Below the pieces are notes generated by a model. The model was not told the DNA's origin. It was given only the letters and a program-made list of their open reading frames with translations, and did not search any database. Of a stretch of DNA of 53,602 bases, positions 1-48,936 are shown piece after piece. A program made the translations under genes and the position numbers. Positions within the stretch are counted from its first letter, which is position 1. Each line of letters begins with the position of its first letter. Source of the DNA: a virus (Duplodnaviria > Caudoviricetes); IMG/VR virus record IMGVR_UViG_3300042923_001154, positions 1 to 53,602 of that record. One strand, given 5' to 3'.

Positions 1-475
1 TTCAAAGGTTAGGGAATACGTTGGGGAGACAAAGGACAAGAGAATCTTCGACCTATACAGCGGTACCGGTACGATCGCACAGCTCCTCGCACCCGTTGCC
101 GGTAAGATAACCGGAGTGGAGATTGTAGAGGAAGCAGTCGAGGCAGCGAAAGAAAATGCTACTCTGAACGAACTGAGTAATTGCGAGTTCATCGCAGGCG
201 ATGTGTTAAAGGTAATCGATTCATTAGAGGATAAGCCGGACATCATCGTACTGGATCCGCCGAGAGACGGAATTCATCCGAAGGCTCTGGACAAGATAAG
301 TGATTCCATTAGGGCGAAAAAGATAGTTTACATCTCATGCAAGCCTACTTCTCTGGTAAGAGACCTAGAAGTTCTTCAGGCAAAAGGATATAAAGTTAAT
401 AGAGTTTGCTGTGTTGATATGTTCCCAGAAACCGTTCATGTAGAAACGGTTGCCGAGTTAGTTCTTACTGAATGA
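1..475 (+). CDS. rlmD: 23S rRNA (uracil-5)-methyltransferase RlmD/RumA, 3' part (5' truncated by window); codons after ~297 are phage-supplied
   Basis: Frame is open from the window start: IFDLYSGTGTI (SAM motif), IVLDPPRDG, YISCKP (catalytic Cys), DMFPETVHVETV. Confidence 0.93.
   Translation, partial: SKVREYVGETKDKRIFDLYSGTGTIAQLLAPVAGKITGVEIVEEAVEAAKENATLNELSNCEFIAGDVLKVIDSLEDKPDIIVLDPPRDGIHPKALDKISDSIRAKKIVYISCKPTSLVRDLEVLQAKGYKVNRVCCVDMFPETVHVETVAELVLTE
281..313. other. Left attachment junction (host rlmD arm + AAGAT core + phage arm)
   Basis: rlmD protein departs from the displaced copy right after ...DKI; phage arm ATAAGTGATTCCATTAGG is an imperfect inverted repeat of the arm at 41735-41752. 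Confidence 0.85.
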
Positions 476-1915
476 CCAGTATATAGTAATATCATTATTT
501 AAAACAACGATTTTATCAATTAATCTATGTATTATGCGGTGGATTTCTTCAATGGATCCACTGCTTTTATTATTACTAAATGACTGCACTGTTTCCCATG
601 CATCCTCCACAGAGATAGCAGCCGGTGCATTATCATACTCTTCAATATACGATAGAAGTTTATCACGTTCATCGTTTAAGGGATCCACACGGTTTAATAC
701 TTCATCCATTTCAATAAGACCTTTTTGATAAAGGTTATATATACGAGTTATTTGCTTATCCAGTTCCTCAATTCGCTCACGGTATTGAACCATATCATCA
801 ATTACCGGAGCGGATTCGATTACAACGGAATCAAAATAGTTCCTATCAACTGACATCTTATCAATCTCGCTAATAATTATGGCATCCAATTCTTCAACCG
901 TGTATGGATGTAGTCTGTTTGAACAATTGTCTGATTTAATCATTGGTTTACTAGTACGAGCTACAGAATGGCATATATACTTCTTGGTTTTACCAGATAC
1001 CTTTCTTCCATACATTCTTGCTCCACAGTCACCGCAAAAGAGAAGACCGGTTAATAAATTATCCGCATTGAACTGTCCATTCGTAAAGCTATAATTTCTT
1101 TTATCCATTGCTTTGTTATGATGAAGGATATCTGAAGCCCTCTTGTACTGATCTAAAGGTATGATTGCTTCATGTAATCCATCAATAAGGCTTCCACCTA
1201 AAGATACTTTACCCATATAAACCGGATTTCTTAGAATGCGTCTAACTGAGGTGTTATTCCACTCAATAAGGTTAGAACTATACTTATCGATCATATGAGC
1301 TGCTATTCCATTAATACTCATTCCGGAAAGAAATAATTGATATACTTCTCTTACCAAACCAGATGAATATTCATCAACAATTAAATCATTTGATCCTTGT
1401 TTGAATTGGTATCCGATCGGAGCATGCGAGCCATGATAATACCCTTTTTTTATTCTTGCTTGTCTTCCTAGAGTTGTACGCTCTTTGATGTTCTCCCTTT
1501 CAAGCTGGGCAAAAGCAGCGAGGATACCTACTATTGCACGTCCAAATGGAGTTGATGTATCGAAGGATTCCATGAGTGATACAAAGTGACAGTTATTAGC
1601 GAGAAATATATCTTCAAGCAATACCATTGTATCTTTTTGAGATCTTGATAATCTATCAAGCTTCCATACGATTACTTTTCCGATTTTACCTGACTGTACA
1701 TCAGAAATTAACTTTTTTACTGCCGGTCTATTGATGGAAGCACCAGAGTATCCAGGGTCTATGTGAACATTAAATATGGTGTAATTCATAGCTATACAGT
1801 AAGCCCTAAGCTTAGTCTCCTGAGCTGCAACAGAGTAACCTTCTTCAGCCTGTTCTAAAGTAGAAACTCTTATGTATAGATCCACAATATTTTCTGTCGT
1901 TAAGTTGCTATCCAT
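458..1915 (-). CDS. Large serine recombinase (phage integrase)
   Basis: YIRVST catalytic Ser motif, DPGYSG, VWKLDRLSRS, recombinase domain (APIGY...ILRNPVYMG), Zn ribbon CGDCG...YIC, coiled coil. Confidence 0.95.
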   Translation of the reverse strand: MDSNLTTENIVDLYIRVSTLEQAEEGYSVAAQETKLRAYCIAMNYTIFNVHIDPGYSGASINRPAVKKLISDVQSGKIGKVIVWKLDRLSRSQKDTMVLLEDIFLANNCHFVSLMESFDTSTPFGRAIVGILAAFAQLERENIKERTTLGRQARIKKGYYHGSHAPIGYQFKQGSNDLIVDEYSSGLVREVYQLFLSGMSINGIAAHMIDKYSSNLIEWNNTSVRRILRNPVYMGKVSLGGSLIDGLHEAIIPLDQYKRASDILHHNKAMDKRNYSFTNGQFNADNLLTGLLFCGDCGARMYGRKVSGKTKKYICHSVARTSKPMIKSDNCSNRLHPYTVEELDAIIISEIDKMSVDRNYFDSVVIESAPVIDDMVQYRERIEELDKQITRIYNLYQKGLIEMDEVLNRVDPLNDERDKLLSYIEEYDNAPAAISVEDAWETVQSFSNNKSSGSIEEIHRIIHRLIDKIVVLNNDITIYWSFSKN

Positions 1916-2014
1916 AATTAAAGCTCCTTCAATACTTAACTTTTATATTTTTGTACATTTTACCTATAGCCATATATATAAAAAGGAATTATAATGTGGC
2001 TAAGGAGGTGTCAT

Positions 2015-2254
2015 ATGAACATGGCGATTAAGTTTATGAACAAACTGTACATACTTTTTATGTACTCAATTAGCTTTATGACCTTCTTATCAATATCCTT
2101 CAAAATAATTTCAATGACTAATCTGTACAACCTAATGATAAATAACTTTATTTATCAATGTATCATAATATTAATGTGTATTCTAATATCGTTATTTTTA
2201 TCTGTGAACCTTACTCATCTTCTTGCGAAGCTTCAGCGGGGACAAAGTAGATAA
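2015..2254 (+). CDS. Small two-TM membrane protein
   Basis: AGGAGG RBS before ATG 2015; two hydrophobic stretches. Confidence 0.55.
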   Translation: MNMAIKFMNKLYILFMYSISFMTFLSISFKIISMTNLYNLMINNFIYQCIIILMCILISLFLSVNLTHLLAKLQRGQSR

Positions 2255-3377
2255 CGTTGTTAACAGTCGTATTATCAACCTCTAACTCAGCGGAGGCTTC
2301 AATTACATAATCAATAGGCCTTACTAAAGCTGCTGGATCTATTCCGGTGGCTTTTATTCTTTCATGAATTTCTATTTTCTTCTGTATAACTTCCAATTCT
2401 TTTAATTCAGCTTCCAGTGCATGCTGTTTGGCATCTGCTTTTGTTTGCTTAATGTTATCTGGAAGAGTAAATATTTCGTGAATAATCTTAGGTAAACCTG
2501 GTAGTTTACAGGTCAGGAAACTTCCTCCTCCAACGAATACGAGTATAGCCACTATTGGTAAATAATTATCTTTAACCGTGTTAAATGCATCTACCAGAGA
2601 AAAATCGATAGGCCCAGGGGAATTTATGTTTATCTGAGTTGAGATCGAACGCTCATCAATAAAATGACATAAATAATCAGTGGTACCAAATAACAGGGTT
2701 GATAATGTTCTTGGACCAATTGGAGCTTCTTTTGTTACATTGTATATCAGATTGATATTATTGTTATATGAATACAAAGGGAATATAGCACCCAGAATAT
2801 ACCTATAGTAAGTGTCCAAATTACTTATTCCATGATAGTTAGAAATGGCACGTATTAAGTTATGATGAACTGCATTAATTGGAAGCGTTTTAATAAGATG
2901 TATATGTCTACGCTTCATATATGGGCATGAAACATCATCTCCTAAATGGATTTCATTGTTTTCTATGCTGCTAATCACTCTATTTTCTAGCTCAACCGTT
3001 TTATTATCCGCTTCAAAATAGGCTCCAGCATAAGCAAATGTAATAAGTGTACTGCCTGCACTTGGTATAATGATTATGTCGTTTTCATTCACTTCGTTGA
3101 TAAATGTTTTGCATTTATTTATTACAGTTGCAGGTCTCTGAATATTACGATAATTACGTCTAATACTATCGTTTAATAAATCAGATGATTGCTCTGAAAA
3201 ATCAGTCTGTTTAGAAATAAGGTTCCACGCAAGAGCCACATACCTTCCACTTATAAATTCATTGTAGAAATATCCCTTTTTCGTTCGTATCATCCAAAAT
3301 CTTGTCTGTTCAGAGATGTTAGGTATATTAAAGTTCAATATACTGTCAAGTACATATAATTCTTCCTCTGTGGTCAT
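2211..3377 (-). CDS. Hypothetical protein, candidate accessory/defence gene
   Basis: Long ORF; GGAGG RBS favours start at 3377; N-terminal FWMIRT..G..Y..F....YVALAW motif, one hydrophobic segment, C-terminal coiled coil. Confidence 0.75.
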   Translation of the reverse strand: MTTEEELYVLDSILNFNIPNISEQTRFWMIRTKKGYFYNEFISGRYVALAWNLISKQTDFSEQSSDLLNDSIRRNYRNIQRPATVINKCKTFINEVNENDIIIIPSAGSTLITFAYAGAYFEADNKTVELENRVISSIENNEIHLGDDVSCPYMKRRHIHLIKTLPINAVHHNLIRAISNYHGISNLDTYYRYILGAIFPLYSYNNNINLIYNVTKEAPIGPRTLSTLLFGTTDYLCHFIDERSISTQININSPGPIDFSLVDAFNTVKDNYLPIVAILVFVGGGSFLTCKLPGLPKIIHEIFTLPDNIKQTKADAKQHALEAELKELEVIQKKIEIHERIKATGIDPAALVRPIDYVIEASAELEVDNTTVNNVIYFVPAEASQEDE

Positions 3378-3596
3378 ATATATTACCTCCATATAAAATA
3401 ATTGGTAGATCCTATATTTAGAATATAATCCAGTTATCACCATAAAAATTTATTTTTCTGGATTTATATACGAAATCATATACTCACGATATATATTTTA
3501 GATCTTATCATGCATTCGAAATAAATTTTATGTTCATAGGTGCATAGACATACTATATACTGTATTCATTAACTATTACAGAAAATATAGGCAGAT

Positions 3597-3806
3597 ATGA
3601 AAATTACTATTGATTATAAATTATACAATATTCGAATGAATAAGCGATTGACTGTACGAGAACTAGAGGCTCTATCCGGTGTAAGTAAGTCTATGATAAA
3701 TAGTATCGAAAATAATAAAGCGAATCCTTCAGTCGTCACAATGTGTCAGCTTGCAGTCGCATTAGGTGTAGAACCAAAAGACTTGTATACATACATGGTC
3801 GAATAA
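3597..3806 (+). CDS. XRE-family HTH protein
   Basis: LTVRELEALSGVSKSMINSIENNKANPS HTH signature. Confidence 0.88.
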   Translation: MKITIDYKLYNIRMNKRLTVRELEALSGVSKSMINSIENNKANPSVVTMCQLAVALGVEPKDLYTYMVE

Positions 3807-3807
3807 T

Positions 3808-3829
3808 TTTGTCCATTATATTGGACAAA
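3808..3829. promoter_or_regulatory. Palindrome TTTGTCCA-N6-TGGACAAA, probable operator
   Basis: Perfect 8-bp inverted repeat directly after the HTH gene. Confidence 0.45.
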
Positions 3830-3952
3830 TTTTTAAAACTATGGAAAAATTAATTACAATATGTTACTTTAATGTAAGAAATAAACAAATATTATTTTGC
3901 TAAAAAGTTCATAGGATGACCGAAACAAATGTTATCATTTCTTCAAAGGAAG

Positions 3953-4003
3953 AGAACGCATGTTCGAAAAATAGTTGTAATATAGTTGTGATTGTTTTAT
4001 AAT
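3953..4003 (+). promoter_or_regulatory. LexA (SOS) box plus sigma-A promoter
   Basis: aGAACgcatGTTCg at 3953-3966 matches the Firmicutes GAAC-N4-GTTC box; TTGTAA(3975)-17-TATAAT(3998). Confidence 0.75.
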
Positions 4004-4045
4004 GATAACAGCTACCTAGGAGTGCGGAACATAGGGGGTATACAT

Positions 4046-4153
4046 ATGACAGAAAATGAGTATAAGAAACTCATATACGAATTAATTGACAACATAAGTA
4101 ACTTGGCAATCCTAAAAAAAATCTACATTTTTATTCATTCAATTATAGGCTAG
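4046..4153 (+). CDS. 35-aa small protein (MTENEYKKLIYELIDNISNLAILKKIYIFIHSIIG), not in ORF track
   Basis: AGGGGG RBS, downstream of the LexA-box promoter; stop overlaps the repressor stop. Confidence 0.65.
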   Translation: MTENEYKKLIYELIDNISNLAILKKIYIFIHSIIG

Positions 4154-4533
4154 GCATCTTGCCTAGCCTTATCATCATTCATATACGATACCATTTTCTC
4201 CAAAGCATTCCAGTCTTTCTCATCTAATCTACTTAACATATGTATAAATCTTTGCTGAAAACTTCCATCGTTAACAGGACGCAGTAGTTTTCCTATCCAT
4301 ATTGTCAGCTCATCAGATTGATCGATTGCTTGAATGTTTTGTCTACCAAGCAATTCATCAGAGCTAACATTAAAGTATTTACACAACATTGCTATTTTAT
4401 CAAAATCAGGCTGTTTTCCTTTTGTTTCGTATCCAGCTACTGTTGGTCTGCCAACTTTTAGTATGTCAGCAAGTTCCTGTTGTGTAATTCCCTTTTGTTT
4501 TCTAAGTTCTTTGAGTCTCTCACCAAAAGTCAT
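4150..4533 (-). CDS. CI-like phage repressor (XRE HTH, no S24 peptidase domain)
   Basis: MTFGERLKELRKQKGITQQELA...YETKGKQP; divergent from the cro-like gene. Confidence 0.88.
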   Translation of the reverse strand: MTFGERLKELRKQKGITQQELADILKVGRPTVAGYETKGKQPDFDKIAMLCKYFNVSSDELLGRQNIQAIDQSDELTIWIGKLLRPVNDGSFQQRFIHMLSRLDEKDWNALEKMVSYMNDDKARQDA

Positions 4534-4571
4534 AAAGTTATACTCCTTTCGGAAATATTATAATTGAAAAT

Positions 4572-4680
4572 GTGCCTAAAATAAACATTAGTGTCTATAA
4601 TGAACAAATATTAAAAAAATATATTGACAATGTTCCTTAACGGAACTATAATAGGTTTATCAAATGTTCCATAACAGCAC
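4572..4680. promoter_or_regulatory. Lysis/lysogeny switch: rightward promoter and four 15-bp operator-like sites
   Basis: TTGACA(4624)-17-TATAAT(4647); GTTCC-N5-GGAAC in the spacer (4632-4646); degenerate copies at 4572, 4591 and 4666, plus one more at 4893. Confidence 0.75.
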
Positions 4681-4699
4681 GCGATGGGAGGTGAGTATA

Positions 4700-4912
4700 A
4701 TGCGTACAAAGTTAATGGAGGTTAGATTACTAAAAAAAATGACTCAAAATGAGCTTGCTGAAAAGGTAGGTATCAGTAGGGCTTATTACACTAACATCGA
4801 ACTAGGAAATAAAAATCCCTCATTTGCTGTAGCTGTAAGAATAAAGGCTGCTCTTAATACCAGGGATGATAGAATTTTTTTTGACCAAAAATGTGTCGAA
4901 AGGGAACAATAA
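4700..4912 (+). CDS. Cro-like XRE HTH protein
   Basis: MTQNELAEKVGISRAYYTNIELGNKNPS; GGAGG RBS. Confidence 0.88.
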   Translation: MRTKLMEVRLLKKMTQNELAEKVGISRAYYTNIELGNKNPSFAVAVRIKAALNTRDDRIFFDQKCVEREQ

Positions 4913-4941
4913 GAGTATATAACATGGAGGTGAAATATAAA

Positions 4942-5430
4942 ATGGGGAACAATCCTACAAAAGCTTCAGAAAATATATATTTTCAAGCTAGAAAAGAAGC
5001 TGCGAAATATAATGAAAAACTAAATAGCAGAGAAGGCGCAGCCGAGCTTCTTGGTTTATCTGTTTCGAGTTTGTCTGATTATGAACTTGGATTAACCAAA
5101 GTGGTTCCGGTTGACAAAGTTATGCTCATGGCTGATCTGTATAATGCCCCAGAACTTAAAACCTATTACTGTAATGAATGCTGTCCGTTAGGATGCAAGA
5201 ATGCAAAAATTGTTCTTGAAGATCTTGACAGAGTTTCGCTCAAGGCCCTTGGTTCTTTTCGAAAGATAATGGGTGCTAAAGAAACATTACTTAATATTGT
5301 AGAAGATGGGGTTATCTCCGAAGATGAAAAGCCTGAGCTGGATCAATTATTAGATGTGATGGAAGAGATAGAGGTGGTTATTAAAACCTTCAAACTTTGG
5401 GCTGAGAAGAATAACTATAAACCGATGTGA
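4942..5430 (+). CDS. Phage XRE-type regulator (CII-like position)
   Basis: SREGAAELLGLSVSSLSDYELG HTH; GGAGG RBS before 4942. Confidence 0.75.
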   Translation: MGNNPTKASENIYFQARKEAAKYNEKLNSREGAAELLGLSVSSLSDYELGLTKVVPVDKVMLMADLYNAPELKTYYCNECCPLGCKNAKIVLEDLDRVSLKALGSFRKIMGAKETLLNIVEDGVISEDEKPELDQLLDVMEEIEVVIKTFKLWAEKNNYKPM

Positions 5431-5449
5431 TAACGTGGGAGGATATGGC

Positions 5450-5632
5450 ATGAGAAAGTACATAGAACCTAACATCCATCATGTTTTCCGATGCGGTACA
5501 AAAACAGACATAATTGAAGGCACTGTGATCCCGTTTACCAGTGAGACATCGGCTGTATATCAAATAATTGCTGATAGAGCAAAGCGTGAATTAGCTGAGA
5601 TAAAGAAGCAAAGACAGGTTATATCTGCTTAA
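5450..5632 (+). CDS. Hypothetical phage protein
   Basis: GGAGG RBS; in the early operon. Confidence 0.65.
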   Translation: MRKYIEPNIHHVFRCGTKTDIIEGTVIPFTSETSAVYQIIADRAKRELAEIKKQRQVISA

Positions 5633-5653
5633 AGATAGGAAGGAGATTACTAT

Positions 5654-6139
5654 ATGAAAGTACTTACTCTGTTTGGTAAAGCGTGGAGAGATTATTTATT
5701 TGCTAACTGTGATGGAATTCATAATGATGCAAAGGATTTCATGATCAGGATTGAATTAATCCGAGACAGCCAAGATCAGATTTTAGAAACAATGCTGGAG
5801 GATACTCCTAACATGGAACTTGTCGCAGAGTGTAAAGGAGAAATTGCTTTTCAAAGAGTTCAGTTGGAAGACATGATAAATGAATTTGTCAATTTTGAGG
5901 ATATACCTGCTGATGAAAAATTATCCGCTGATGAAATTCTTATGGATCTTTGTGATGCAGCTACTAATAGTTATCTTTATGAGATTGCATCAGAATGGAA
6001 GGTCTGGGGTGAGAAATCCCATAAAATTTGTGAAAAGCTAAATGAATTATATGGCTATGGTATTGGTTATATTCATGATGATCTTTGCAAATTGATTTTA
6101 TCTGAAATCATTAATAATGATAATGACAAGGTTATATAG
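5654..6139 (+). CDS. Hypothetical acidic phage protein
   Basis: AGGAG RBS; 161-aa ORF in the operon. Confidence 0.75.
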   Translation: MKVLTLFGKAWRDYLFANCDGIHNDAKDFMIRIELIRDSQDQILETMLEDTPNMELVAECKGEIAFQRVQLEDMINEFVNFEDIPADEKLSADEILMDLCDAATNSYLYEIASEWKVWGEKSHKICEKLNELYGYGIGYIHDDLCKLILSEIINNDNDKVI

Positions 6140-6143
6140 AAGC

Positions 6144-6246
6144 AAAAAAAGATTGTATCAAGCGACCAAACTCAGATACAACCTTTTGAAAAAAATATAG
6201 GAAATACTCTTTGTTTTATTGTATCAGATATTATTTGATATTTCAA
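6144..6246 (-). ncRNA. Candidate short antisense RNA unit (promoter plus terminator)
   Basis: Minus strand: TTGAAA-17-TACAAT with extended TG, then a GTTGTATC/GATACAAT hairpin followed by a U7 tract. Confidence 0.45.
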
Positions 6247-6258
6247 GGGGTGATAGTG

Positions 6259-6501
6259 ATGATCGCAAATAGTGTGTATATGGTAAAGACTTGGACCGGT
6301 GAAGAAAAGCCGGTAAAAAAAATTGTCTTGTTTCCAGAGCGTGATAGTTCTGGTGAGATATTTTATAAAATTGAGGGTCAGCTTAATACGGATTATTTTA
6401 TGATCAGTTACTTTTACGACCAAGAGCAAGCCAAAAAGGAATACTATCGTATATTAGATTCCTTTATGACTTTCCAAATTAACAATCTTCAATCCTACTA
6501 A
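6259..6501 (+). CDS. Hypothetical phage protein
   Basis: AGGGG RBS before 6259. Confidence 0.65.
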   Translation: MIANSVYMVKTWTGEEKPVKKIVLFPERDSSGEIFYKIEGQLNTDYFMISYFYDQEQAKKEYYRILDSFMTFQINNLQSY

Positions 6502-6583
6502 ATACGAATAAATCCATCAAAATACATACTAATCATAATTAATATGACTTAATCCATATAAATCAGAGTTAATTTGAATGAAT
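6491..6583. repeat. Ten AAT-initiated units at exact 10-bp period; candidate centromere (tubC-like)
   Basis: AAT starts at 6491, 6501, 6511, 6521, 6531, 6541, 6551, 6561, 6571 and 6581, directly upstream of the wHTH + tubulin genes. Confidence 0.75.
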
Positions 6584-6595
6584 GGGGGCGATTTA

Positions 6596-6853
6596 TTGAG
6601 CAAATTTGAATTTATGATTTTATCTATCCTATTGAGCAACAATGCCACAAATAATATGAGTGCAATGACAGCCAAGGATATTTGTGCAGCTGAAAACTTG
6701 GGATATGAAAGAAATACATACTATAAACGTTTGAAAGAATTTCTTGATCAAGGGTTTGTTGGTATTGGTGCACAGGAAAGAAGATCTATGACTTTTTATA
6801 TAACCAAATTAGGAATACAAAAATTGAAGGAGGAAAAGGAAGATGAAGAATAA
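6596..6853 (+). CDS. Small winged-helix DNA-binding protein, TubR-like adaptor candidate
   Basis: MTAKDI...RNTYYKRLKEFLDQGFV..G......FYITKLG wHTH pattern; overlaps the start of the tubulin gene; TTG start after GGGGG (ATG 6578 is the alternative). Confidence 0.7.
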   Translation: MSKFEFMILSILLSNNATNNMSAMTAKDICAAENLGYERNTYYKRLKEFLDQGFVGIGAQERRSMTFYITKLGIQKLKEEKEDEE

Positions 6854-7889
6854 GATCGGGTTTATTGCCATCGGACAAGCTGGGGGCAATATTGGAAGAT
6901 TACTTGAGGAGAAGGGATATAGTGTATTGTTTATAAATACATCGGAGGAAGATTTATCTACCCTTCAGGATGTCAAGTATAGATATCATATACCTGGTGG
7001 CGAGGGGTGCAATAAGGATAGAAGTAAAGCTAAAAAGCTTGTTGTCGACAACTATGAGAACTTGAGCAAAGAGATTGATGAGAAGATTAACAGAGACATG
7101 CTCTTTGTAATATTTTCATCCGGTGGTGGTACCGGATCCGGTATTGGCCCAATGCTGGTTGATCTACTGTGTGATGATAATAAAACTGTCGGAGCAATTA
7201 CCGTGTTGCCGGCTCAGTCAGAAAGTCTTAAATCACATATCAACTCATATGAGTGCTTCTGTGAGCTTACTGATATCTCCGGTATGGCATGCACTTTCAT
7301 TCTAGATAATGACAAGGGTGCTGATAAGATAAAGCTTAATTCTATCTTTGTGAATATGCTTACCAGATTCCTTGATATTCCCGACAAGTACAAGTCGGTA
7401 AAGGGGAATATTGATAAGGCTGAGGTAACTGAGACTTTGAAAAGTCATGGTATGGCTATTGTTTCTTCACTTGGTGAAGCCAAGGGTTCAGTATCAGCTC
7501 TTATTACATCCTTCAGTAAGAATATTTTTGCTCCGATCGAGGATGATCGTGTTATTAAATATATTGCTTTATCTGGTTCTGATGATATCAATATAGCAGA
7601 ACTTGAGAAAGCGGTTGGTACTCCTATCGATACATTCCGTACATACAGCGATTCATCAACACTATGTCTTCTTGCCGGCTTAAGCTATCCACAAAATAGA
7701 CTGGATATCATCCGGAAGAAGGTCATGGACAATAAAGAGCTCATCAAGAAGAACCTAAGTGTTCATTCACAGCAGAAAATGAAGAATGATATCAATTTTC
7801 TTGATGAACTTAGCAAGCCGGAGAAGGCTGCTAATAACAATTCTGCAAAGGGTAACTCGATAAGGGATAAAATGAGCAAATATCTATAA
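6843..7889 (+). CDS. tubZ: Tubulin/FtsZ-superfamily GTPase, TubZ-like
   Basis: GQAGGNI (T1), GGGTGSG tubulin signature (T4), GNIDKAE (T7-like), helical basic C-terminal tail. Confidence 0.88.
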   Translation: MKNKIGFIAIGQAGGNIGRLLEEKGYSVLFINTSEEDLSTLQDVKYRYHIPGGEGCNKDRSKAKKLVVDNYENLSKEIDEKINRDMLFVIFSSGGGTGSGIGPMLVDLLCDDNKTVGAITVLPAQSESLKSHINSYECFCELTDISGMACTFILDNDKGADKIKLNSIFVNMLTRFLDIPDKYKSVKGNIDKAEVTETLKSHGMAIVSSLGEAKGSVSALITSFSKNIFAPIEDDRVIKYIALSGSDDINIAELEKAVGTPIDTFRTYSDSSTLCLLAGLSYPQNRLDIIRKKVMDNKELIKKNLSVHSQQKMKNDINFLDELSKPEKAANNNSAKGNSIRDKMSKYL

Positions 7890-7903
7890 GGACCGGTGAA
7901 AAG

Positions 7904-8824
7904 ATGGCAGAGGTTAAATGGATCCAGATTGTTACGGACATATTCGACAATCGAAAAATCAAACAAATAGAGAGAATGCCTGAAGGTGATGCGATTATTG
8001 TCGTATGGTTTAAAATCTTATGCCTAGCTGGAAAATGTAATAAAAATGGAATGATGTTTTTTACGGATGAAATACCATACACCGAAGATATGTTAGCTAC
8101 AGAATTTGGAATGGAACAACCTCAACGGTTTAATGTCTTAAAGCTTGCCATACGAACATTTGAGCAGTTTAAGATGATTGAAATAATCGATGATATATTC
8201 TGTATTTCATCATGGGAAAGGTATCAAAACATTGCAGGGCTTGAAAAAATCAGAGAACAAAATCGCATAAGACAGGCTAGATTTAAAGGAAATAAAAAGC
8301 AATTACCAGATAACGTTAATAGTAACGTTACTGATAACGCTCAAGTAACGCATGGTAACGCAACAGATATAGATAAAGAAATAGATATAAATATATATAA
8401 TAAAAACATTGTGCAATCGGATTGCACTTCTCATCCTTCCAAAGCATCGAAAGCTGATATTGATTTGCTGTTTGATACTCTTTGGAAACTTTATCCGAAC
8501 AAGAAGGGTAAAGGTCAAGTATCGGATGCAAGAAAAAAGAAACTCTATGAAATCGGTGTTGATGAACTTACCAGAGCAATAGAGAGATATCAATCTGAGC
8601 TTGCTAAGGACAGTTGGAGGGTTGCTCAGAACGGTTCAACATTCTTTAACTCTGGCTATGTTGATTATCTGGATGCTAATTATTCACCAAGTAAACAGAC
8701 GAATATTCAACCCACTGCTAATAAAGCGGTAAGTCAGAATAAGTTCAACCAGTTTCCTCAGAGACATTATTCTGATCAGGATTATGCAGACCTTGAGAAG
8801 AAGTTGCTTAACAAAGGATTATAA
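7904..8824 (+). CDS. Phage replication initiator (replisome organizer N-terminal domain)
   Basis: MAEVKWI...DIFDNRKIKQI...GDAIIVVWFKILCLAGK; C-terminal FDTLWKLYPNKKGK...NGSTFFN domain. Confidence 0.9.
   Translation: MAEVKWIQIVTDIFDNRKIKQIERMPEGDAIIVVWFKILCLAGKCNKNGMMFFTDEIPYTEDMLATEFGMEQPQRFNVLKLAIRTFEQFKMIEIIDDIFCISSWERYQNIAGLEKIREQNRIRQARFKGNKKQLPDNVNSNVTDNAQVTHGNATDIDKEIDINIYNKNIVQSDCTSHPSKASKADIDLLFDTLWKLYPNKKGKGQVSDARKKKLYEIGVDELTRAIERYQSELAKDSWRVAQNGSTFFNSGYVDYLDANYSPSKQTNIQPTANKAVSQNKFNQFPQRHYSDQDYADLEKKLLNKGL
8309..8362. repeat. Five TAACG iteron-like repeats inside the initiator gene; probable replication origin
   Basis: GATAACGT, AGTAACGT, GATAACGC, AGTAACGC, GGTAACGC followed by a very AT-rich tract. 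Confidence 0.65.
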
Positions 8825-8847
8825 GAGCCTAAGGAGGATAATTAATT

Positions 8848-9021
8848 ATGGCAAATGATAATAGCATGGTAAACGTTGGTTTAATAAATCGTGATAATTC
8901 AGTTAGTATTTCCAAGGAGCTTGCTCCAGAGGTTAAGTTGGCAAGTATCAATAGCAGTGTAGTGCCTTTATTCCCTACGAAAAACGGATATGAGTATTTT
9001 GTATTCCGCACACGGAGGTAA
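8848..9021 (+). CDS. 57-aa hypothetical protein (not in ORF track)
   Basis: AAGGAGG RBS; fills the gap between rep and the methyltransferase. Confidence 0.6.
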   Translation: MANDNSMVNVGLINRDNSVSISKELAPEVKLASINSSVVPLFPTKNGYEYFVFRTRR

Positions 9022-9023
9022 CA

Positions 9024-10643
9024 ATGAATTATGACAATCTGTTAGTAGATGGATTTGCCGGAGGCGGAGGTGCGTCAACCGGAATAGAAATTGCATTAGG
9101 TCGACAAGTAGACATAGCAATTAATCATGATCCTGATGCGATACTAATGCACAAGACTAATCATCCAGACACAATACATCTTCAGGAAAGTATTTGGGAT
9201 GTAAAGCCTTTAGAAGCGACAAAAGGAAGGCATGTAGGATTACTCTGGATGTCACCTGATTGCAAGCATTTTAGCAAGGCAAAAGGTGGAAAGCCAAAGG
9301 ATAAAAACATCAGAGCGTTGCCTTGGGCGATTGTCATGTGGGCAAAGGAAGTTAGACCAGATGTTATTATAGCTGAGAATGTTGAAGAAATTCAGACATG
9401 GGGTCCACTTGATAAAGACGGATATCCAATACCGGAGAAGAAGGGGCAGACATTCAATCTGTTCATAGAAAATCTTCGAAGACTAGGGTATGAAGTACAG
9501 TGGAGAGAATTGATAGCTGCTGACTATGGAGCCCCAACTACCAGAAAAAGGTGGTATATGATCGCTAGATGTGATGGAAAGCCTATTGTATGGCCTGAGC
9601 CAACTCATTCAAAAACCGGTAAAAACGGATTAGAGAAATGGGTACCGGTTTCAACATGCTTAGACTTTAACGATTTAGGACAATCCATATTCGGTCGAAA
9701 GAAACCACTCGCAGAAAATACGATGAAAAGAATTGCCAGAGGTATTGATAAATTCGTATTCAATAATCCAGAACCTTTCATCGTACCAATAGGTTACGGT
9801 GAAAGAGAAGGTCAGAGTCCAAGAGTAAACAGCATCAATGATCCGGTCGGAACTATAGTATCAAGTGGAAAACATTATCTTTGTACTCCGGTAATGGCAC
9901 AAATCGGGCAAACGGGATTCTCGGAGGATAGATCAAGAAGTTTGGAGCAGCCTTTAAGCACAATAGTGACAAAACAAGAACATTGTCTTGTATCTCCTAT
10001 ACTCATTCAGTATCATTCCGAGACAGCGCACGATCATGTAAGAGGACAGTCAGTGGAAGAGCCTATTATGACGATTGATGCCTCTCCAAGATATGCAATA
10101 GCAAGTTCATTCCTCACTAAGTTCTATAAGACCGGAATAGGTCAAGTAGTGACGGAGCCTCTTCATACTATCACAACTTCGCCTGGACATTTCGGTGAGG
10201 TAAAAATCCTAATGGTTGAGAGGGAAGATGTTAGAAGTGAATTCCGTGAAAAATGTAACCAGGTAACATCATTCATAATTGAGTACTATGGACAAGGCGG
10301 TGCACATTCGATTGATGAACCATTACATACAGTTGTCACAAAGGACAGGTTCGCATTAGTTACAATACACGGAATTGATTATATCATCTGTGACATCACA
10401 TTAAGAATGTTGAGTCCGAGAGAGTTATATAAGGCGCAAGGCTTCCCGGATGATTATATTATCGATCACGATTATACCGGTAAAGCTTACCCAATAGCAA
10501 AACAGGTAGCACGATGCGGAAATAGCGTGGTACCAATAGTTGCAAAATCTTTGGTAGAAGTAAATTGCAGTTATCTTAAGGTCGGAGAGCGTATTGGAAA
10601 TATGCAAATTGATGATAGTAAGCAGCAACTGAGATTCGCATAG
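9024..10643 (+). CDS. Phage DNA (cytosine-5) methyltransferase
   Basis: FAGGGG (I), SPDC (IV), ENV (VI), TTRKR (VIII), AQGFP (IX), GNSV (X). Confidence 0.92.
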   Translation: MNYDNLLVDGFAGGGGASTGIEIALGRQVDIAINHDPDAILMHKTNHPDTIHLQESIWDVKPLEATKGRHVGLLWMSPDCKHFSKAKGGKPKDKNIRALPWAIVMWAKEVRPDVIIAENVEEIQTWGPLDKDGYPIPEKKGQTFNLFIENLRRLGYEVQWRELIAADYGAPTTRKRWYMIARCDGKPIVWPEPTHSKTGKNGLEKWVPVSTCLDFNDLGQSIFGRKKPLAENTMKRIARGIDKFVFNNPEPFIVPIGYGEREGQSPRVNSINDPVGTIVSSGKHYLCTPVMAQIGQTGFSEDRSRSLEQPLSTIVTKQEHCLVSPILIQYHSETAHDHVRGQSVEEPIMTIDASPRYAIASSFLTKFYKTGIGQVVTEPLHTITTSPGHFGEVKILMVEREDVRSEFREKCNQVTSFIIEYYGQGGAHSIDEPLHTVVTKDRFALVTIHGIDYIICDITLRMLSPRELYKAQGFPDDYIIDHDYTGKAYPIAKQVARCGNSVVPIVAKSLVEVNCSYLKVGERIGNMQIDDSKQQLRFA

Positions 10644-10703
10644 TTATTTATGTTTGAAAACGCAGTAAGCGATTCAATAAAAATCATGGAAAGGAGAATA
10701 TTC

Positions 10704-11105
10704 ATGGGTTCAAGAACAAAACTGGACTTAAACAAGTTCGCCGGTGGTGTCCTGCAGGAGAAGTTCAATGGAGCATTAACAGAAGTAATTAAGAATATGC
10801 AGGATCCTAACACAAGTTTTAAAAACAAGAGAGGTATCACAATCTCAATCGGATTTACTCAGAACGAGCAGAGAGATGATGCAAAGATCTCTGTTTCTGT
10901 TACCACTAAAACCTCACCTGTGCTTCCGATCGAGACAGCTCTTTACATGGGCAAGGATTTAGATACCGGAGATATTGAGATCAGAGAGTACGGCAAGCAG
11001 GTAGCCGGGCAAATGACATTTAGTGATATTCAGGAACCTGAGAAAGATGAACCAGTAGAACAGCCATCTAAGGTTAGAAACCTTAGAGAAGTTAAAGCAA
11101 ATTAA
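10704..11105 (+). CDS. Hypothetical phage protein
   Basis: AAGGAG RBS before 10704. Confidence 0.75.
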   Translation: MGSRTKLDLNKFAGGVLQEKFNGALTEVIKNMQDPNTSFKNKRGITISIGFTQNEQRDDAKISVSVTTKTSPVLPIETALYMGKDLDTGDIEIREYGKQVAGQMTFSDIQEPEKDEPVEQPSKVRNLREVKAN

Positions 11106-11120
11106 GAAGGGAGATCAACC

Positions 11121-11846
11121 ATGATCAAAGAAGCATTAGAGTATATCGTAGGATTAAAGCAGCCTAGACAGGAAGTAATTAATGGAGAAGTGTTTGCTAG
11201 CAAAAGAGACGATCTTTACCGTGTTGACACAAATTTGAGAGCTGAGACTCTGGAAATGTCTACATTAACCAGCCTTGTTGATTACATAAAGTCAGACCTT
11301 GATAAGATTTCCGAATATCAAGGTAAAATGATTGTACATGTTGTATCACCAACAAGGGTAAGATTGTTATCCTTTTTGGACAGCGACAGTAAGAGAGAAA
11401 ACCTTATTGAGGTAAATGCTAACTTACCTAAAATTCGTTTCAATGAATTTGTTGATCAGGAGTCCTTTATCATCATGATACAGTCGATGTTCGTGAATAA
11501 CGAGGACAAGGCAATTGTTCTCCAGGTAGCCGGTAATGTTGAAGATGGTACGATTGCAAACTATAAGGATGATGGGGTTACACAAAAGGCGACCATTAAG
11601 ACAGGCCTTGCTAGCAAGGATGATGTAGTAGTTCCAAATCCGGTTAGGCTGAAGCCATATAGAACATTTCATGAGATTGAGCAGCCCGAATGTAGCTTTG
11701 TGTTCCGAATGAACAACGGCAGAGGAGTCACATGCGCTCTCTATGAAGCCGATGGAGGAGCATGGAAGAATGAGACCATGGATGAGATTGCAGCTTATTT
11801 GAAAGAAGAGCTTAAGGACAACGAGCAAATCATTGTATTATCTTAA
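11121..11846 (+). CDS. Hypothetical phage protein
   Basis: 241-aa ORF with RBS; VPNPVRLKPYRTFHEIEQP...ALYEADGGAW resembles a Firmicutes phage family. Confidence 0.8.
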   Translation: MIKEALEYIVGLKQPRQEVINGEVFASKRDDLYRVDTNLRAETLEMSTLTSLVDYIKSDLDKISEYQGKMIVHVVSPTRVRLLSFLDSDSKRENLIEVNANLPKIRFNEFVDQESFIIMIQSMFVNNEDKAIVLQVAGNVEDGTIANYKDDGVTQKATIKTGLASKDDVVVPNPVRLKPYRTFHEIEQPECSFVFRMNNGRGVTCALYEADGGAWKNETMDEIAAYLKEELKDNEQIIVLS

Positions 11847-11974
11847 ATCAACTTTAATACTTTAGTACTACTCCTTTTCCTTATCCGAGTAATATAGCAT
11901 ATCACACAATCAGGCGGTGCATAACCGCCTGATATATAAAATTAATCAGGTATATCAAAAAGGCGGTGTTAGTA

Positions 11975-12178
11975 ATGAGTGTTGAAACTGGAGTACAGAT
12001 TGTCGCATCTATCAGCTTTTCAGCTGTAGCCTATGGTGACATTGAAAATGCAATGAGGGAAGGAAATAAAGAACTGGCTAAACAGTTAGCATTTGAGATT
12101 ATTATCGATAGATTAAATTGCGGTTACACAGCAGATATCAAAGTCGATGCTGTGGAAGTGAATTTTGTTGATACATAA
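11975..12178 (+). CDS. Hypothetical phage protein
   Basis: ORF with AGGCGG RBS. Confidence 0.6.
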   Translation: MSVETGVQIVASISFSAVAYGDIENAMREGNKELAKQLAFEIIIDRLNCGYTADIKVDAVEVNFVDT

Positions 12179-14576: not shown

Positions 14577-14614
14577 GAAGGAATTAAGATTTACCTAAAG
14601 AAAGAAGGTGAGCT

Positions 14615-17355: not shown

Positions 17356-17922
17356 ATGAATACAGTGGAACCTATAAGAGATATGAATCTAGTACTTGAT
17401 ATTGCAGACTATCTGAGAGTAAGAAATGAGCGTGATTATGTGATGTTCATGTTCGGTATCTATTCAGGTCTTAGAATTTCAGATATCTTATTGTTCAGGG
17501 TTAGAGATGTGAGGGATAAAGACTCTATCTGGATCCGTGAGATGAAGACAAATAAGGAAAAAAGGTTTGCTATAAATAATGAGCTCAAGCATATTATCCG
17601 TGACTATATATCTGATAAAAAAGATTACGAATATCTCTTCAAATCCAAGAAAGGGAAAAACAGTCCGATTTCAAGACAACAGGCCTACAATGTTATTAAT
17701 GGAGCTGCCAATACATTTGGGCTAGAGTCTATTGGTACCCATACCCTTAGAAAGACATTTGGTTATCATTCTTATCAGCAAAATAAAGATGCAGTCACTC
17801 TGATGAAGATATTTAATCATTCGGACATATCTGTTACATTGAGATATATTGGTATTAATCAGGATACGATGGATGCTGTTATTAAAAAATTGTCGTTCAA
17901 GCCGGGTAGAAAAACGGAATGA
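17356..17922 (+). CDS. Short tyrosine recombinase (catalytic domain only)
   Basis: SGLRISDIL, K, HTLRKT, FNHS, TLRYIG (R-K-H-R-H-Y). Confidence 0.93.
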   Translation: MNTVEPIRDMNLVLDIADYLRVRNERDYVMFMFGIYSGLRISDILLFRVRDVRDKDSIWIREMKTNKEKRFAINNELKHIIRDYISDKKDYEYLFKSKKGKNSPISRQQAYNVINGAANTFGLESIGTHTLRKTFGYHSYQQNKDAVTLMKIFNHSDISVTLRYIGINQDTMDAVIKKLSFKPGRKTE

Positions 17923-41775: not shown

Positions 41776-41936
41776 ACAAGATTGTCTACATCTCCTGTAA
41801 GCCCACCTCTTTGGTCAGGGACTTAGAGGTGCTTCAAGCGAAGGGATATAAAGTAGAAAAGGTATGCGCCGTGGATATGTTCCCCGAGACGGTGCATGTT
41901 GAGACGGTTGTCTTGATGTCACGTAAAGATAAGTAA
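41754..41936 (+). pseudogene. rlmD: Displaced 3' end of rlmD
   Basis: KIINFGVDKIVYISCKPTSLVRDL...HVETVVLMSRKDK duplicates the C-terminus encoded at 298-475. Confidence 0.88.
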
Positions 41937-44943: not shown

Positions 44944-44963
44944 TCTGAATAGCAAGAATTAAC

Positions 44964-46262: not shown

Positions 46263-46263
46263 G

Positions 46264-47685: not shown

Positions 47686-47686
47686 T

Positions 47687-48906: not shown

Positions 48907-48936
48907 GAATTTATCCTCCATATAATATGATTTTGT

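Follow-up and report, generated by a model that had tools for sequence, protein, structure and literature searches.

Tubulins that move DNA in bacteria have been described in two settings. TubZ partitions large low-copy plasmids and plasmid-prophages, and PhuZ centres the phage nucleus of the jumbo phages. In the TubZRC systems of the first setting, direct repeats stand directly 5′ of tubR in every tubC described in PMC6009700 and PMC5016525. In characterised systems the C-terminal tail of TubZ binds TubR, and TubZ binds only the assembled TubR-tubC filament, as described in PMC5016525. The TubZRC locus of Clostridium botulinum phage c-st, a 186-kb plasmid-like prophage, has a tubC of ~350 bp with two sites and two iteron types and a predicted promoter just 5′ of tubR (PMC6009700); TubY (CST188) is encoded 3′ of tubZ. 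Large low-copy Bacillus plasmids (pBtoxis, pXO1-like plasmids, pBM400, pBsph) likewise combine upstream direct repeats with a winged-helix adaptor and a tubulin motor. Their tubC is reported to consist of two or three blocks (PMC5016525), their TubR to be dimeric with extra helices (PMC6009700) and TubY to be required (PMC7762940). In the Pseudomonas phage TubZs, according to PMC3678025, the C-terminal tail serves polymerisation. PhuZ is a phage-encoded tubulin associated with lytic growth, as is predicted for the tubulin studied here; PhuZ belongs to phages of >200 kb, and no adaptor or centromere is described for it.

A cytoskeletal system of a different kind is found in Corynebacterium glutamicum, where the large cryptic prophage CGP3 combines a filament-forming protein (AlpC) with an adaptor (AlpA) and upstream repeats (alpS). 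All three are induced early, and the excised phage circle depends on them to replicate fully and efficiently, as reported in PMC4446434. AlpC is an actin-like, ParM-type motor without sequence relationship to TubZ, and AlpA is unrelated to TubR.

Here we describe a third setting for tubulin: in Lachnospiraceae and other Clostridia, many integrating prophages of 30-55 kb carry a compact TubZRC cassette beside their replication initiator. In the literature we found no paper describing a tubulin cassette of this kind in an integrating phage. The analysis is centred on one viral record of 53,602 nt, the whole of which is referred to as the window.

Results

An initial annotation of the window had proposed a TubZRC-like module containing a 348-aa gene of the tubulin/FtsZ family that overlaps a winged-helix gene. 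The tubulin gene lies at 6843-7889 on the plus strand, has the expected length and overlaps tubR by 11 nt. The motifs GQAGGN (T1), GGGTGSG (the T4 signature) and GNIDKAE (T7) are present and invariant in an alignment of 20 relatives. Pfam assigned the protein to TubZ_C_3 (PF22340, 8e-18) and Tubulin (PF00091, 3e-15). The best solved relative by sequence in the PDB is c-st TubZ (E 1.5e-37, 29% identity), and matches to other proteins were weaker (CetZ 1e-11, FtsZ 1e-10 or weaker). Foldseek also placed c-st TubZ best, with E 9e-19 against 5e-13, using a query model whose C-terminal domain has a mean pLDDT of 69. The plasmid TubZs are more remote: pBtoxis TubZ gave a Foldseek E of 4e-11 and sits on a long unresolved tree branch, and similarity to Bacillus plasmid TubZ is too low for tblastn.

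Phylogenetic analysis grouped the window protein with c-st TubZ in one supported clade (97 SH-aLRT), in which c-st TubZ is nested. Two Anaerocolumna genomes each encode exactly one FtsZ and one prophage TubZ, and their host FtsZs are set apart by branches of 2.9 substitutions per site. A grouping with chromosomal FtsZ was thus absent, and together with the lack of a Pfam FtsZ_C match in the protein this leads us to reject an FtsZ identity. A PhuZ identity was rejected as well: the phage measures 41 kb and has both an adaptor and an array, the tree puts phiKZ TubZ outside the clade, on a separate and very long branch, and the weak match to the PhuZ PHROG (2.4e-15) covers the N-terminal part only. 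Over its full length the protein matches phrog_17961 (5.7e-36), which PHROGs labels 'unknown function'. Its tail consists of a variable linker followed by a conserved peptide, ...RDxMSKYL, the counterpart of which in c-st is ...FFSKYM; both proteins thus end in SKY(L/M). Values of dN/dS of 0.036 and 0.063 indicate that TubZ is under strong purifying selection, and on these values and the conserved motifs a decaying relic was rejected.

Immediately upstream, the tubR ORF read from its ATG spans 6578-6853 and encodes 91 aa. The true start is likely the TTG at 6596, because a GGGGG ribosome site precedes it and homologues share TTG or GTG starts and lengths. The resulting gene (6596..6853, plus strand) encodes 85 aa, in agreement with the ~85-aa winged-helix protein first proposed, and the product is a putative centromere-binding protein of TubR type. 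Its best solved relatives are TubRs (phmmer E 6.9e-8 to PDB 6tey). It also matches phrog_17403 (E 9.7e-9), a family labelled 'transcriptional regulator', so that neither protein of the cassette, although present in the phage databases, carries a TubZ or TubR label there. An AF2 model with a pLDDT of 88.8 retrieved TubR of C. botulinum and TubR of pBM400 at Foldseek ranks 1 and 2, the latter with a TM of 0.74. The protein shares with c-st TubR the small size of ~80 aa and 34% identity in the fold alignment. Its dN/dS is about 0.10-0.12. In a complex prediction, two TubR copies with TubZ residues 296-348 scored 0.28 against a mark of 0.32, a value that speaks neither for nor against the complex; as TubZ is described as binding only the assembled TubR-tubC filament (PMC5016525), a design with two TubRs may be unsuitable.

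A tubC-like array of ten 10-bp direct repeats with the core T-n-A-A-T (6491..6583, plus strand) takes up all the space that separates the preceding ORF from the ribosome site of tubR. A scan for phased AAT found ten consecutive cores at exact 10-bp spacing, while the longest other run in the window is 4 (periods 7-14, both strands) and the maximum across 200 second-order Markov simulations of the window is 5. The repeat array noted in the initial annotation is thereby confirmed. It is degenerate, only T-n-A-A-T being conserved, and its generic lag-10 self-match score of 34 equals the null 99th percentile, the threshold being 35. Tandem Repeats Finder did not report it at 6491-6583, and a general repeat search picked up no more than a pair of 33-nt copies spaced 40 nt apart. 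Standard repeat tools thus largely miss the array, and a phase-specific test is needed.

Relatives carry a cleaner version. Among 121 close loci (TubZ at least 44% identical, at least 400 nt of upstream sequence), 109 have a homologous 10-bp array with the consensus T-W-A-A-T-C-A-G-A-G in the equivalent position, with a score that exceeds the null 99th percentile; the scoring window ends a median of 19 nt 5′ of tubR. A TubR homologue is present in 106 of the loci and both elements in 96. Judged by this co-occurrence, array, tubR and tubZ are one unit. The family iteron is much cleaner, and what the window contains is a degenerate copy of it. Given that degeneracy and a lag-10 score below threshold, TubR binding to the window array is more doubtful than in, for example, the related locus L002. 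Lineages with the iteron cores AATCCGAG, AnTAAGAG, AATACGAG or GTAATCCGnT also have divergent TubRs, a pairing that lends indirect support to TubR binding to the repeats. The array is a single continuous block of ~93 bp, in contrast to the two sites of c-st tubC, and a tubC split into two or three separated blocks was not seen in the window or in the relatives inspected.

The replication initiator annotated 14 bp after the tubulin gene is a replisome organiser/DnaD-like helicase loader (7904..8824, plus strand; Pfam Phage_rep_org_N 4e-39; PHROGs replisome organizer, DnaD-like helicase loader), and its start lies 14 nt past the tubulin stop. The first ORF 3′ of tubZ clusters with this organiser in 95/125 loci; three further loci have a D5-type primase-helicase instead, 10-11 nt downstream. 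In a collection of phage records the organiser family occurs in 165 and TubZ matches in only 5 (from 3 phages), so that the cassette is dispensable for that mode of replication. Within the gene, five copies of TAACG followed by a stretch of 92% A+T (8291..8405, plus strand) mark a probable replication origin. Clusters of at least 4 copies of a 5-mer were found in 63/68 homologous rep ORFs versus 16/68 TubZ ORFs. The sequence of these origin-like iterons and of the AT-rich block is unlike that of the tubC iterons.

The array, both cassette genes and the replication gene recur together in >100 related prophages of Lachnospiraceae and other Clostridia, and in the window all of them lie in a rightward operon downstream of the lysis-lysogeny switch, in line with the early lytic placement initially assigned. 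A CI-like HTH protein, by its position probably the repressor, is encoded divergently (4150..4533, minus strand; assigned from ORF and sequence), and homologues occupy the same position in related loci. The predicted early rightward promoter (4624..4652, plus strand) has a perfect sigma-70-type consensus, TTGACA-17-TATAAT, and in a consensus scan is the sole site with 12/12 matches in 3900-9100. In the same simple scan, applied to this one phage, no good sigma-70 site was found near 6490-6600, whereas a promoter is predicted just 5′ of tubR in c-st. A sole strong promoter at the switch, with none at the array, makes expression in the lytic phase the likelier case, with expression in lysogens a lesser possibility. 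A search of RNA runs for 5600-9000 found none that contains the locus.

The statement that no TubY-like gene adjoins the module also held. With c-st TubY as the sole query, tblastn gave no match at E<=1, either in the window or in any of 147 loci, and no MerR family matched above its own cut-off in the window. The one weak MerR match (12 bits, cut-off 28.2), in the ORF that precedes the large terminase, was rejected as a TubY candidate. Repeats, tubR and tubZ follow one another in the order known from c-st; the position that TubY holds 3′ of tubZ in c-st is taken here by the replisome organiser.

The element that carries the cassette is a prophage of ~41.4 kb, as the proposed ~41-kb phage with a serine integrase implied. 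The large serine recombinase is encoded at 458..1915 on the minus strand (Pfam Resolvase 1e-38, Recombinase, Zn_ribbon_recom), and the target is the 3′ end of a tRNA methyltransferase gene, the last ~44 codons of which are present twice, once per prophage end (tblastn and DNA alignment). On the attL side lies the 3′ end of a tRNA (uracil-5)-methyltransferase gene (320..475, plus strand; Pfam tRNA_U5-meth_tr on 2-472). Residues 107-150 of this protein are repeated at 41778..41909 (plus strand), the displaced 3′ end on the attR side that forms the right prophage boundary, with 93% amino acid identity over 44 aa (tblastn) and 81% nucleotide identity. Identical stretches in the duplicated segments are all <=11 nt long, so the crossover point is not fixed. 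The left junction is spanned by a contig of run X1, which covers 253-4046 with zero differences from the window. A second, catalytic-domain-only tyrosine recombinase is encoded at 17356-17922 (PF00589 2e-27); it is kept in 26/27 close viral records and in 55/90 loci with enough downstream sequence.

Signs of excision or of an empty site were sought in contigs from four soil-metagenome runs, compared with positions 1-12000. Loose ends of contigs were found at 412 and 446. The 30-nt consensus of neither occurs in the window with <=3 mismatches allowed, which rules both out as attP or attB junctions of the prophage; they probably come from methyltransferase genes of other organisms. No excised-circle junction was seen in these contigs over 1-12000, contigs being weak evidence on this point.

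Integration is common among the relatives. A survey of how often the cassette co-occurs with integrases found a large serine or full-length tyrosine recombinase in 26/27 close viral records of at least 30 kb, and 17 of the 27 are classed as provirus by IMG/VR. Some relatives sit in complete chromosomes of 6.4 and 6.8 Mb. Within 10 kb upstream, no integrase was found in 23/75 loci. For one record, that of locus L049, assembly gave not a provirus but a 30.5-kb genome with direct repeats at its termini. Among 72,556 plasmid records there was no close relative: identity is <=32.4% for all 22 matches and <=30.5% for the 16 with query coverage of at least 80%. Cultured relatives include strains of Anaerocolumna, Blautia, Laedolimicola and Lachnospira.

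Discussion

TubZ_C_3, the c-st TubZ clade, the TubR fold and repeats directly 5′ of tubR together bear out the TubZRC-like reading of the module. A plasmid-style partition system has no obvious purpose in such lysogens: the cassette belongs to an integrated prophage and, unlike type III partition systems of plasmids, not to a low-copy extrachromosomal replicon, so that partition is not needed while the prophage is integrated. We are inclined to think, with somewhat more than even confidence, that the locus is a complete but minimal TubZRC cassette of c-st type, expressed with the early lytic operon, whose role once the phage is induced or has infected a cell is to move replicating phage DNA or keep it spaced.

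Homology and the anatomy of the locus, combined with what is established for characterised TubZRC systems, suggest the following mechanism. Once the phage is induced or infects a cell, transcription from the early promoter at 4624 would run through tubR, tubZ and rep. By coating the one-turn-phased iterons, TubR would build a nucleoprotein structure, either a filament or a ring, at a distance of ~1.7 kb from the origin. TubZ would polymerise with GTP, its conserved C-terminal peptide docking on the TubR-tubC complex, and the dynamic filament would move or space circular replicating phage genomes. It could part sister circles or bring circles to a favourable site, with more replication and packaging as the outcome, comparable to AlpAC of CGP3. 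As long as the prophage is integrated, we predict that the cassette is not expressed and has no task. Against a positioning role stands the high copy number that 30-55 kb phages reach on replication, which makes a need for an active positioning machine hard to explain, and so do the organiser-bearing phages that lack TubZ and the 23/75 loci in which no integrase was found within 10 kb upstream. AlpAC is the best functional analogue, with the tubulin cassette as its counterpart, and this precedent in an integrated prophage somewhat reduces the surprise of finding the cassette here.

Episomal maintenance, a second and plasmid-like mode of persistence, is the main alternative, to which we give clearly less weight. 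As in c-st, daughter cells or spores would receive an unintegrated circle segregated by the TubZRC cassette, during a carrier state or pseudolysogeny, during a period before integration or in forespore delivery. This is the function assigned to TubZRC of c-st, the nearest characterised relative, in PMC6009700 and PMC3678025. The short tyrosine recombinase at 17356-17922 could resolve circle dimers and so act as a classic partition partner, and the terminally repeated 30.5-kb genome of L049 fits an unintegrated form. Many Lachnospiraceae form spores, which speaks for forespore delivery. However, the window copy and most relatives are integrated and encode an integrase, and the plasmid records yielded no close relative. 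The consensus scan found no promoter able to express the cassette under repression, no TubY was found in the window or the 147 loci, and the contigs over 1-12000, weak evidence as they are, lack an excised-circle junction. In a broader form, for which our confidence is equally tentative, ordinary-sized integrating temperate phages of Clostridia would carry a plasmid-style kit for their circular phase, in which a one-block tubC, TubR, TubZ and the short tyrosine recombinase as dimer resolvase are tied to the origin and segregate or deliver unintegrated genomes. If so, the phages could also be inherited as episomes or in a carrier state, or enter forespores, and would be able to persist as circles as well as in integrated form.

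It is improbable, in our estimate, that TubR and TubZ serve origin firing or replisome assembly instead of DNA movement. Such a role would recall the pXO1 TubZ homologue and the pBtoxis minireplicon; Tinsley and Khan 2006 and Tang et al. 2006, judging by their titles as cited in PMC7762940, give plasmid homologues a replication role. It would suit the position of tubZ 14 nt 5′ of the initiator, the recurrence of this adjacency in 95 loci and the non-homologous primase-helicase that takes the same place in three more. Yet in the phage collection the organiser family mostly occurs without TubZ, the phage encodes an initiator itself, its origin-like site is distinct from the tubC iterons, and later work on plasmid TubZ, as covered in PMC6009700, PMC7762940 and PMC5016525, supports partition.

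That the array is merely an operator, the winged-helix protein a regulator of the early operon and the tubulin a separate factor acting, for example, on host FtsZ or cell division is very unlikely: plasmid TubR also represses its own operon (PMC6009700), PHROGs labels the family accordingly and the array lies within the transcribed path of the early operon, but ten one-turn-phased sites far exceed the needs of an operator, tubR and tubZ overlap and co-occur in 106/121 close loci, the tail peptide is common to c-st TubZ, and characterised tails bind TubR (PMC5016525), while the great distance of TubZ from host FtsZ makes copolymerisation unlikely. Of the functions first listed for the module, interference with host FtsZ has the lowest probability.

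With one block of 10-bp iterons, an 85-aa adaptor, a 348-aa motor, no TubY and relatives in culture, the cassette is attractive for experiments. If it organises lytic replication, small phages, too, use a cytoskeleton of their own, and AlpAC of CGP3 would no longer stand alone as an oddity. Should the cassette support an episomal phase, many such prophages would persist by a route that has gone unrecognised.

The cassette lies in the early operon of an integrated prophage

The window is a 53.6-kb IMG/VR virus record. Its left edge (2-475, plus strand) codes for the C-terminal portion of a tRNA (uracil-5)-methyltransferase, a gene that converges with that of a large serine recombinase (458-1915, minus strand). 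Methyltransferase residues 107-150 are encoded again at 41778-41909 with 93% amino acid identity, and the duplicated segments share 81% nucleotide identity over ~155 nt. Because this segment is duplicated at both ends, we place the phage in the 3' end of the methyltransferase gene, for which it supplies a substitute end. The prophage is integrated and ~41.4 kb long; serine recombinase and duplicated target ends thus bear out the initial annotation, which had described an integrating phage of ~41 kb with a serine integrase. A contig of the best-matching public run spanned 253-4046 with zero differences. The genes to the right of the prophage (42765-48921), encoding an Mrr-family nuclease, two C5 cytosine methylases and an HNH protein, together with HTH proteins also found on this side, were read as host flank. 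This flank resembles a restriction-modification or defence island.

A CI-like gene (4150-4533, minus strand) lies opposite a perfect early promoter (TTGACA-17-TATAAT, 4624-4652, plus strand), beyond which lies a Cro-like gene. In a consensus scan of 3900-9100 this was the single site with a 12/12 match, and no promoter was detected near the array. The rightward operon contains, in this order, HTH and unknown genes, the repeat array, tubR, tubZ, the replisome organiser gene (rep) and a C5 methylase gene (9024-10643, 539 aa), separate from the two flank C5 methylases. The module is located downstream of the CI/Cro switch within this same operon, and its proposed early lytic placement stands. To the right of the early operon, a gpA-type large terminase, a lambda-type portal and an endolysin are encoded. 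Among the early genes, PAPS reductase-like (phrog_424) and radical SAM-like (phrog_9298) genes at 13710-15550 may form a DNA-modification module; ORFs with a PAPS_reduct domain also occurred in relatives (5 of 102 ORFs scanned).

Homology of the two proteins to TubR and TubZ

From the sequence alone, a repeat array, a winged-helix gene of ~85 codons, an overlapping tubulin/FtsZ-family gene and, 14 bp further on, a replication initiator had been proposed, and all four were recovered. For the tubR-like gene (ORF 6578-6853, plus strand), the probable start codon is TTG 6596, preceded by GGGGG, so that the product has 85 aa. Homologues range from 79 to 91 aa, and most of them likewise use TTG or GTG after a comparable ribosome site; the use of these codons instead of ATG may hold translation of the adaptor low relative to TubZ. 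The 85-aa protein matched PDB entry 6tey, "DNA-binding protein TubR", at 6.9e-8 (runner-up only 0.095) and phrog_17403 at 9.7e-9. A structural model built from an alignment of 31 rows, out of 99 distinct upstream ORFs, reached a pLDDT of 88.8 and has three helices, a two-strand wing and one helix. Its best folds were the TubRs of C. botulinum (TM 0.73/0.76) and pBM400 (TM 0.74/0.70), followed by generic PadR, MarR and ArsR winged helices. Sequence matches and model identify the protein as a TubR by homology.

The tubZ gene (6843-7889, plus strand) overlaps tubR by 11 nt and encodes 348 aa with the motifs GQAGGN, GGGTGSG and GNIDKAE. Pfam searches yielded TubZ_C_3 (8e-18) and Tubulin (3e-15). 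Over its full length the protein matched phrog_17961 (unknown function, 5.7e-36), and the match to the PhuZ PHROG family (2.4e-15) was confined to the N-terminal part. Against all PDB sequences, both TubZ entries of the C. botulinum phage c-st ranked first (1.5e-37 and 5.3e-37), followed by CetZ (1.4e-11) and FtsZs (4.7e-10 and weaker). The AlphaFold model, based on 20 alignment rows from the 120 matches listed, had a mean pLDDT of 69, with ~90 in the GTPase domain and poor values in the C-terminal domain. Its best fold was again c-st TubZ (E 9e-19, TM 0.67/0.76), ahead of CetZ, Bacillus thuringiensis TubZ, FtsZ and PhuZ.

A quick maximum-likelihood tree of 39 rows was calculated from the window, 32 of 147 related loci picked for spread, c-st TubZ, phage G gp138, phiKZ TubZ, pBtoxis TubZ and two host FtsZs. 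The window protein fell inside a 33-row clade that included c-st TubZ (SH-aLRT 97); grouping with chromosomal FtsZ was not seen, the FtsZs being set apart by branches of 2.9 substitutions per site. The phiKZ, pBtoxis and phage G proteins were on long unresolved branches, and their exact placement is unsafe. Homology, structure and phylogeny all point to c-st TubZ as the nearest characterised relative, far from host FtsZ, and we assign the 348-aa protein to TubZ by homology.

The GTPase motifs were without variation in the 20-row alignment. At the C-terminus, a low-complexity variable linker precedes a conserved terminal peptide, which reads IRDKMSKYL in the window, KRDIMSKYL in most relatives and NDFFSKYM in c-st. 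As described in PMC5016525, the C-terminal tail of TubZ binds TubR only after TubR has assembled on tubC. The dN/dS ratio of tubZ was 0.036 against the nearest relative, L002, and 0.063 against a second related locus, L070; for tubR it was ~0.10-0.12, with dS close to saturation.

A continuous array of 10-bp iterons precedes tubR

The tubC-like array (6491-6583, plus strand) fills the gap between the stop of a 96-aa ORF (6501) and the ribosome site ahead of tubR, in a window of ~36% G+C. In exact 10-bp register it reads CAATCCTACT AAATACGAAT AAATCCATCA AAATACATAC TAATCATAAT TAATATGACT TAATCCATAT AAATCAGAGT TAATTTGAAT GAATGG, with ten consecutive AAT at 10-bp spacing. The second-longest phased AAT run in the window had a length of 4 (periods 7-14, both strands), and 200 second-order Markov simulations of the window gave a maximum of 5. 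The array is degenerate, the conserved part being T-n-A-A-T only. Tandem Repeats Finder did not report it in the window, and a general repeat search saw it only as a pair offset by 40 nt. Its lag-10 self-match score was 34, compared to a threshold of 35 and a 99th percentile of also 34 (maximum 40) among 1212 segments elsewhere in the same loci.

In related loci the consensus iteron is T-W-A-A-T-C-A-G-A-G, with lineage variants AATCCGAG, AnTAAGAG, AATACGAG and GTAATCCGnT. The nearest relative, L002, shares 93% identity in TubZ and only 68% in TubR, and its array is clean (TTAATCAGAG and variants) whereas that of the window is degenerate. Locus L098 is another relative with a clean array. Iterons of one helical turn, each with an A-tract, would place all TubRs on the same face of the DNA and favour curvature, which would be consistent with the ring-like segrosomes of c-st.

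The cassette is conserved as a unit

A protein search with TubZ returned 657 clusters at E<=1e-5, with names including Herbinix, Anaerocolumna, Eubacterium and an Izemoplasmatales metagenome-assembled genome. From these relatives 68 viral and 79 genome loci were fetched, the latter mostly from Lachnospiraceae or unclassified Clostridia and Bacillota. Two genome loci lie in complete chromosomes (6.8 and 6.4 Mb), each with a total of two genes of the tubulin family, one for FtsZ and one for the prophage TubZ. Hosts that can be cultivated are Anaerocolumna sp. (L098, L107), A. xylanovorans DSM 12503 (L147), Blautia glucerasea (L077), B. schinkii DSM 10518 (L113), Laedolimicola ammoniilytica (L127) and Lachnospira intestinalis (L143).

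TubZ was at least 44% identical to that of the window in 125 close loci, 121 of which had at least 400 nt upstream. Among these 121, a TubR homologue was found in 106 (tblastn, window or c-st TubR as query, E<=1e-3), a 10-bp array scoring at least 35 in 109 and both together in 96. The median gap from the end of the array scoring window to the TubR match was 19 nt. Several loci without a TubR match had an ORF of 80-93 aa at the same spot and a different iteron. In 95 of 125 loci with sufficient sequence past tubZ, the first downstream ORF clustered with the replisome organiser of the window, usually at a distance of 14-25 nt, and 66 of these 95 were also direct tblastn matches. The remaining 30 fell into 19 small clusters, one of which (3 loci) encodes a D5_N/DUF5906 primase-helicase starting 10-11 nt past tubZ.

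The distant group comprised 22 loci with TubZ below 44% identity, some on contigs of 109-173 kb. TubR was kept in 16 of 20 with enough upstream sequence and the 10-bp array in 2 of 20; the organiser was never found downstream of tubZ in the 22 loci. In loci L056-L069, TubR-TubZ is 31-35% identical and sits on much larger viral contigs, the longest of 172,719 bp; these loci may represent plasmid-prophages of the c-st kind or else large phages. A TTGACA-type promoter-like region takes the position of the 10-bp array in the distant examples L058, L060 and L064, and a serine recombinase gene lies just past tubZ in L056, L059, L061, L063, L066 and L069.

In a subset of relatives an extra ORF of 126-167 aa with a hydrophobic, membrane-anchor-like N-terminus was present between tubR and tubZ (L008:7628-8128, L012:4555-4932, L022:9514-10008, L105:9511-10008; also L009, L014, L082, L110 and L113). 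The two copies scanned, from L008 and L022, had no Pfam match. By analogy to the membrane link proposed for the amphipathic tail of TubY, this protein could tie the cassette to the membrane.

The replication gene and its putative origin

The rep gene starts at 7904 (plus strand), 14 nt past tubZ, and the cassette is located directly beside this initiator. The 306-aa product matched Phage_rep_org_N (4e-39) and the replisome-organiser and DnaD-like helicase-loader PHROGs. Inside the gene, five TAACG copies within ~70 nt (from 8291) are followed by a stretch of 92% A+T (8365-8405). Clusters of 5-mers at similar depth were found in 63 of 68 homologous rep ORFs and in 16 of 68 tubZ ORFs, which served as control. 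Origins lie within the initiator gene in lambda O and SPP1 gene 38, and because of these precedents the block was read as the replication origin. It differs in sequence from the tubC array and is ~1.7 kb away. Contigs of three soil runs diverge or end at 8336-8395 within this block, which is suggestive of a breakpoint of recombination or assembly where the two domains of the Rep protein meet.

The cassette most likely acts on replicating phage genomes

According to published TubZRC behaviour (PMC6009700, PMC7762940, PMC5016525), TubR would coat the iterons, TubZ would polymerise in a GTP-dependent manner, the TubZ tail would dock onto the TubR-tubC complex and the filament would move the DNA. 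Since the lysogen is integrated and no separate promoter was found, the cassette is most likely active after induction or infection, on circular replicating genomes. Organisers of the rep family occurred in 165 records of a collection of cultured phages, in which just 5 of 50,697 records matched TubZ, all at <=31% identity; these records belong to phage G and to c-st and D-1873, two phages of C. botulinum. These numbers argue for an add-on that would improve replication, and not for an obligatory part of initiation.

Alternatively, the cassette might serve to keep the phage as an episome or in a carrier state, or to deliver it into spores, which we consider possible though clearly less probable. 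Phage c-st provides a precedent, and one of the 27 close viral records of at least 30 kb was assembled with direct terminal repeats (30.5 kb); 17 of the others are classed as provirus and 9 as linear in IMG/VR. A conserved short tyrosine recombinase might, as one possibility, resolve circle dimers. It consists of the catalytic domain only (17356-17922, plus strand, 188 aa; PF00589 2e-27; phrog_216) and sits between early genes and terminase, as a second recombinase besides the serine integrase of the phage. Among 90 related loci that extend far enough downstream, 55 encode it at 70-98% identity, a stronger conservation than that of TubZ, and a short frame with this domain (184-249 aa) was present in 26 of the 27 records. 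Against episomal maintenance stands the distribution of integrases, for which a survey had been suggested. Large serine recombinases were found in 15 of the 27 records and tyrosine-recombinase frames of 342-434 aa in 11 of the other 12; the sole record without a full-length recombinase is merely 64% complete. Of 75 close loci that extend 9 kb or more upstream, 41 had a serine-integrase homologue in this region, encoded on the opposite strand, and 102 ORFs of at least 250 aa from the other 34 yielded 9 tyrosine integrases and 2 further serine recombinases. The lack of a detected cassette promoter also argues against it, as does the absence of close relatives on plasmids: 22 of 72,556 plasmid records matched TubZ, all at <=32.4% identity, and these are large plasmids from Clostridium, Bacillus, Paenibacillus and similar hosts. 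That TubR and TubZ are accessories of replication initiation appears unlikely, and an array acting as operator for a winged-helix regulator, with an independent tubulin that might act on host FtsZ, is the least probable reading.

Comparison with known systems

Described type III loci belong to large episomes, have a centromere in split blocks and include TubY. In contrast, the cassette resides in an integrated prophage of ~41 kb, has one continuous block of 10-bp repeats and is fused to the phage replication module with no promoter of its own detected. TubY, which the initial annotation had likewise not seen next to the module, was absent from the window in a tblastn search with c-st TubY and a MerR-family scan. 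Full-text searches, with subscription journals outside their scope, did not retrieve any account of TubZRC from integrating phages of small size, nor any paper combining TubZ with Lachnospiraceae, or tubulin with "temperate phage" and "replisome organizer". A 2013 paper refers to only two phage tubulin subgroups then known (PMC3678025). A 2020 paper, citing Oliva 2012, mentions chromosomal TubZ with TubY and without TubR in some Clostridia (PMC7762940); some of the chromosomal homologues may already appear in Oliva 2012 or in its supplements.

The cassette of small integrating phages is real and conserved, and apparently undescribed in the literature. An actin-based analogue already exists in the AlpA/AlpC/alpS system of the Corynebacterium glutamicum prophage CGP3. 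As reported in PMC4446434, it belongs likewise to an integrated prophage, is induced early, binds repeats upstream of its operon and is required for full amplification of the phage DNA, whereas the cassette described here is tubulin-based.
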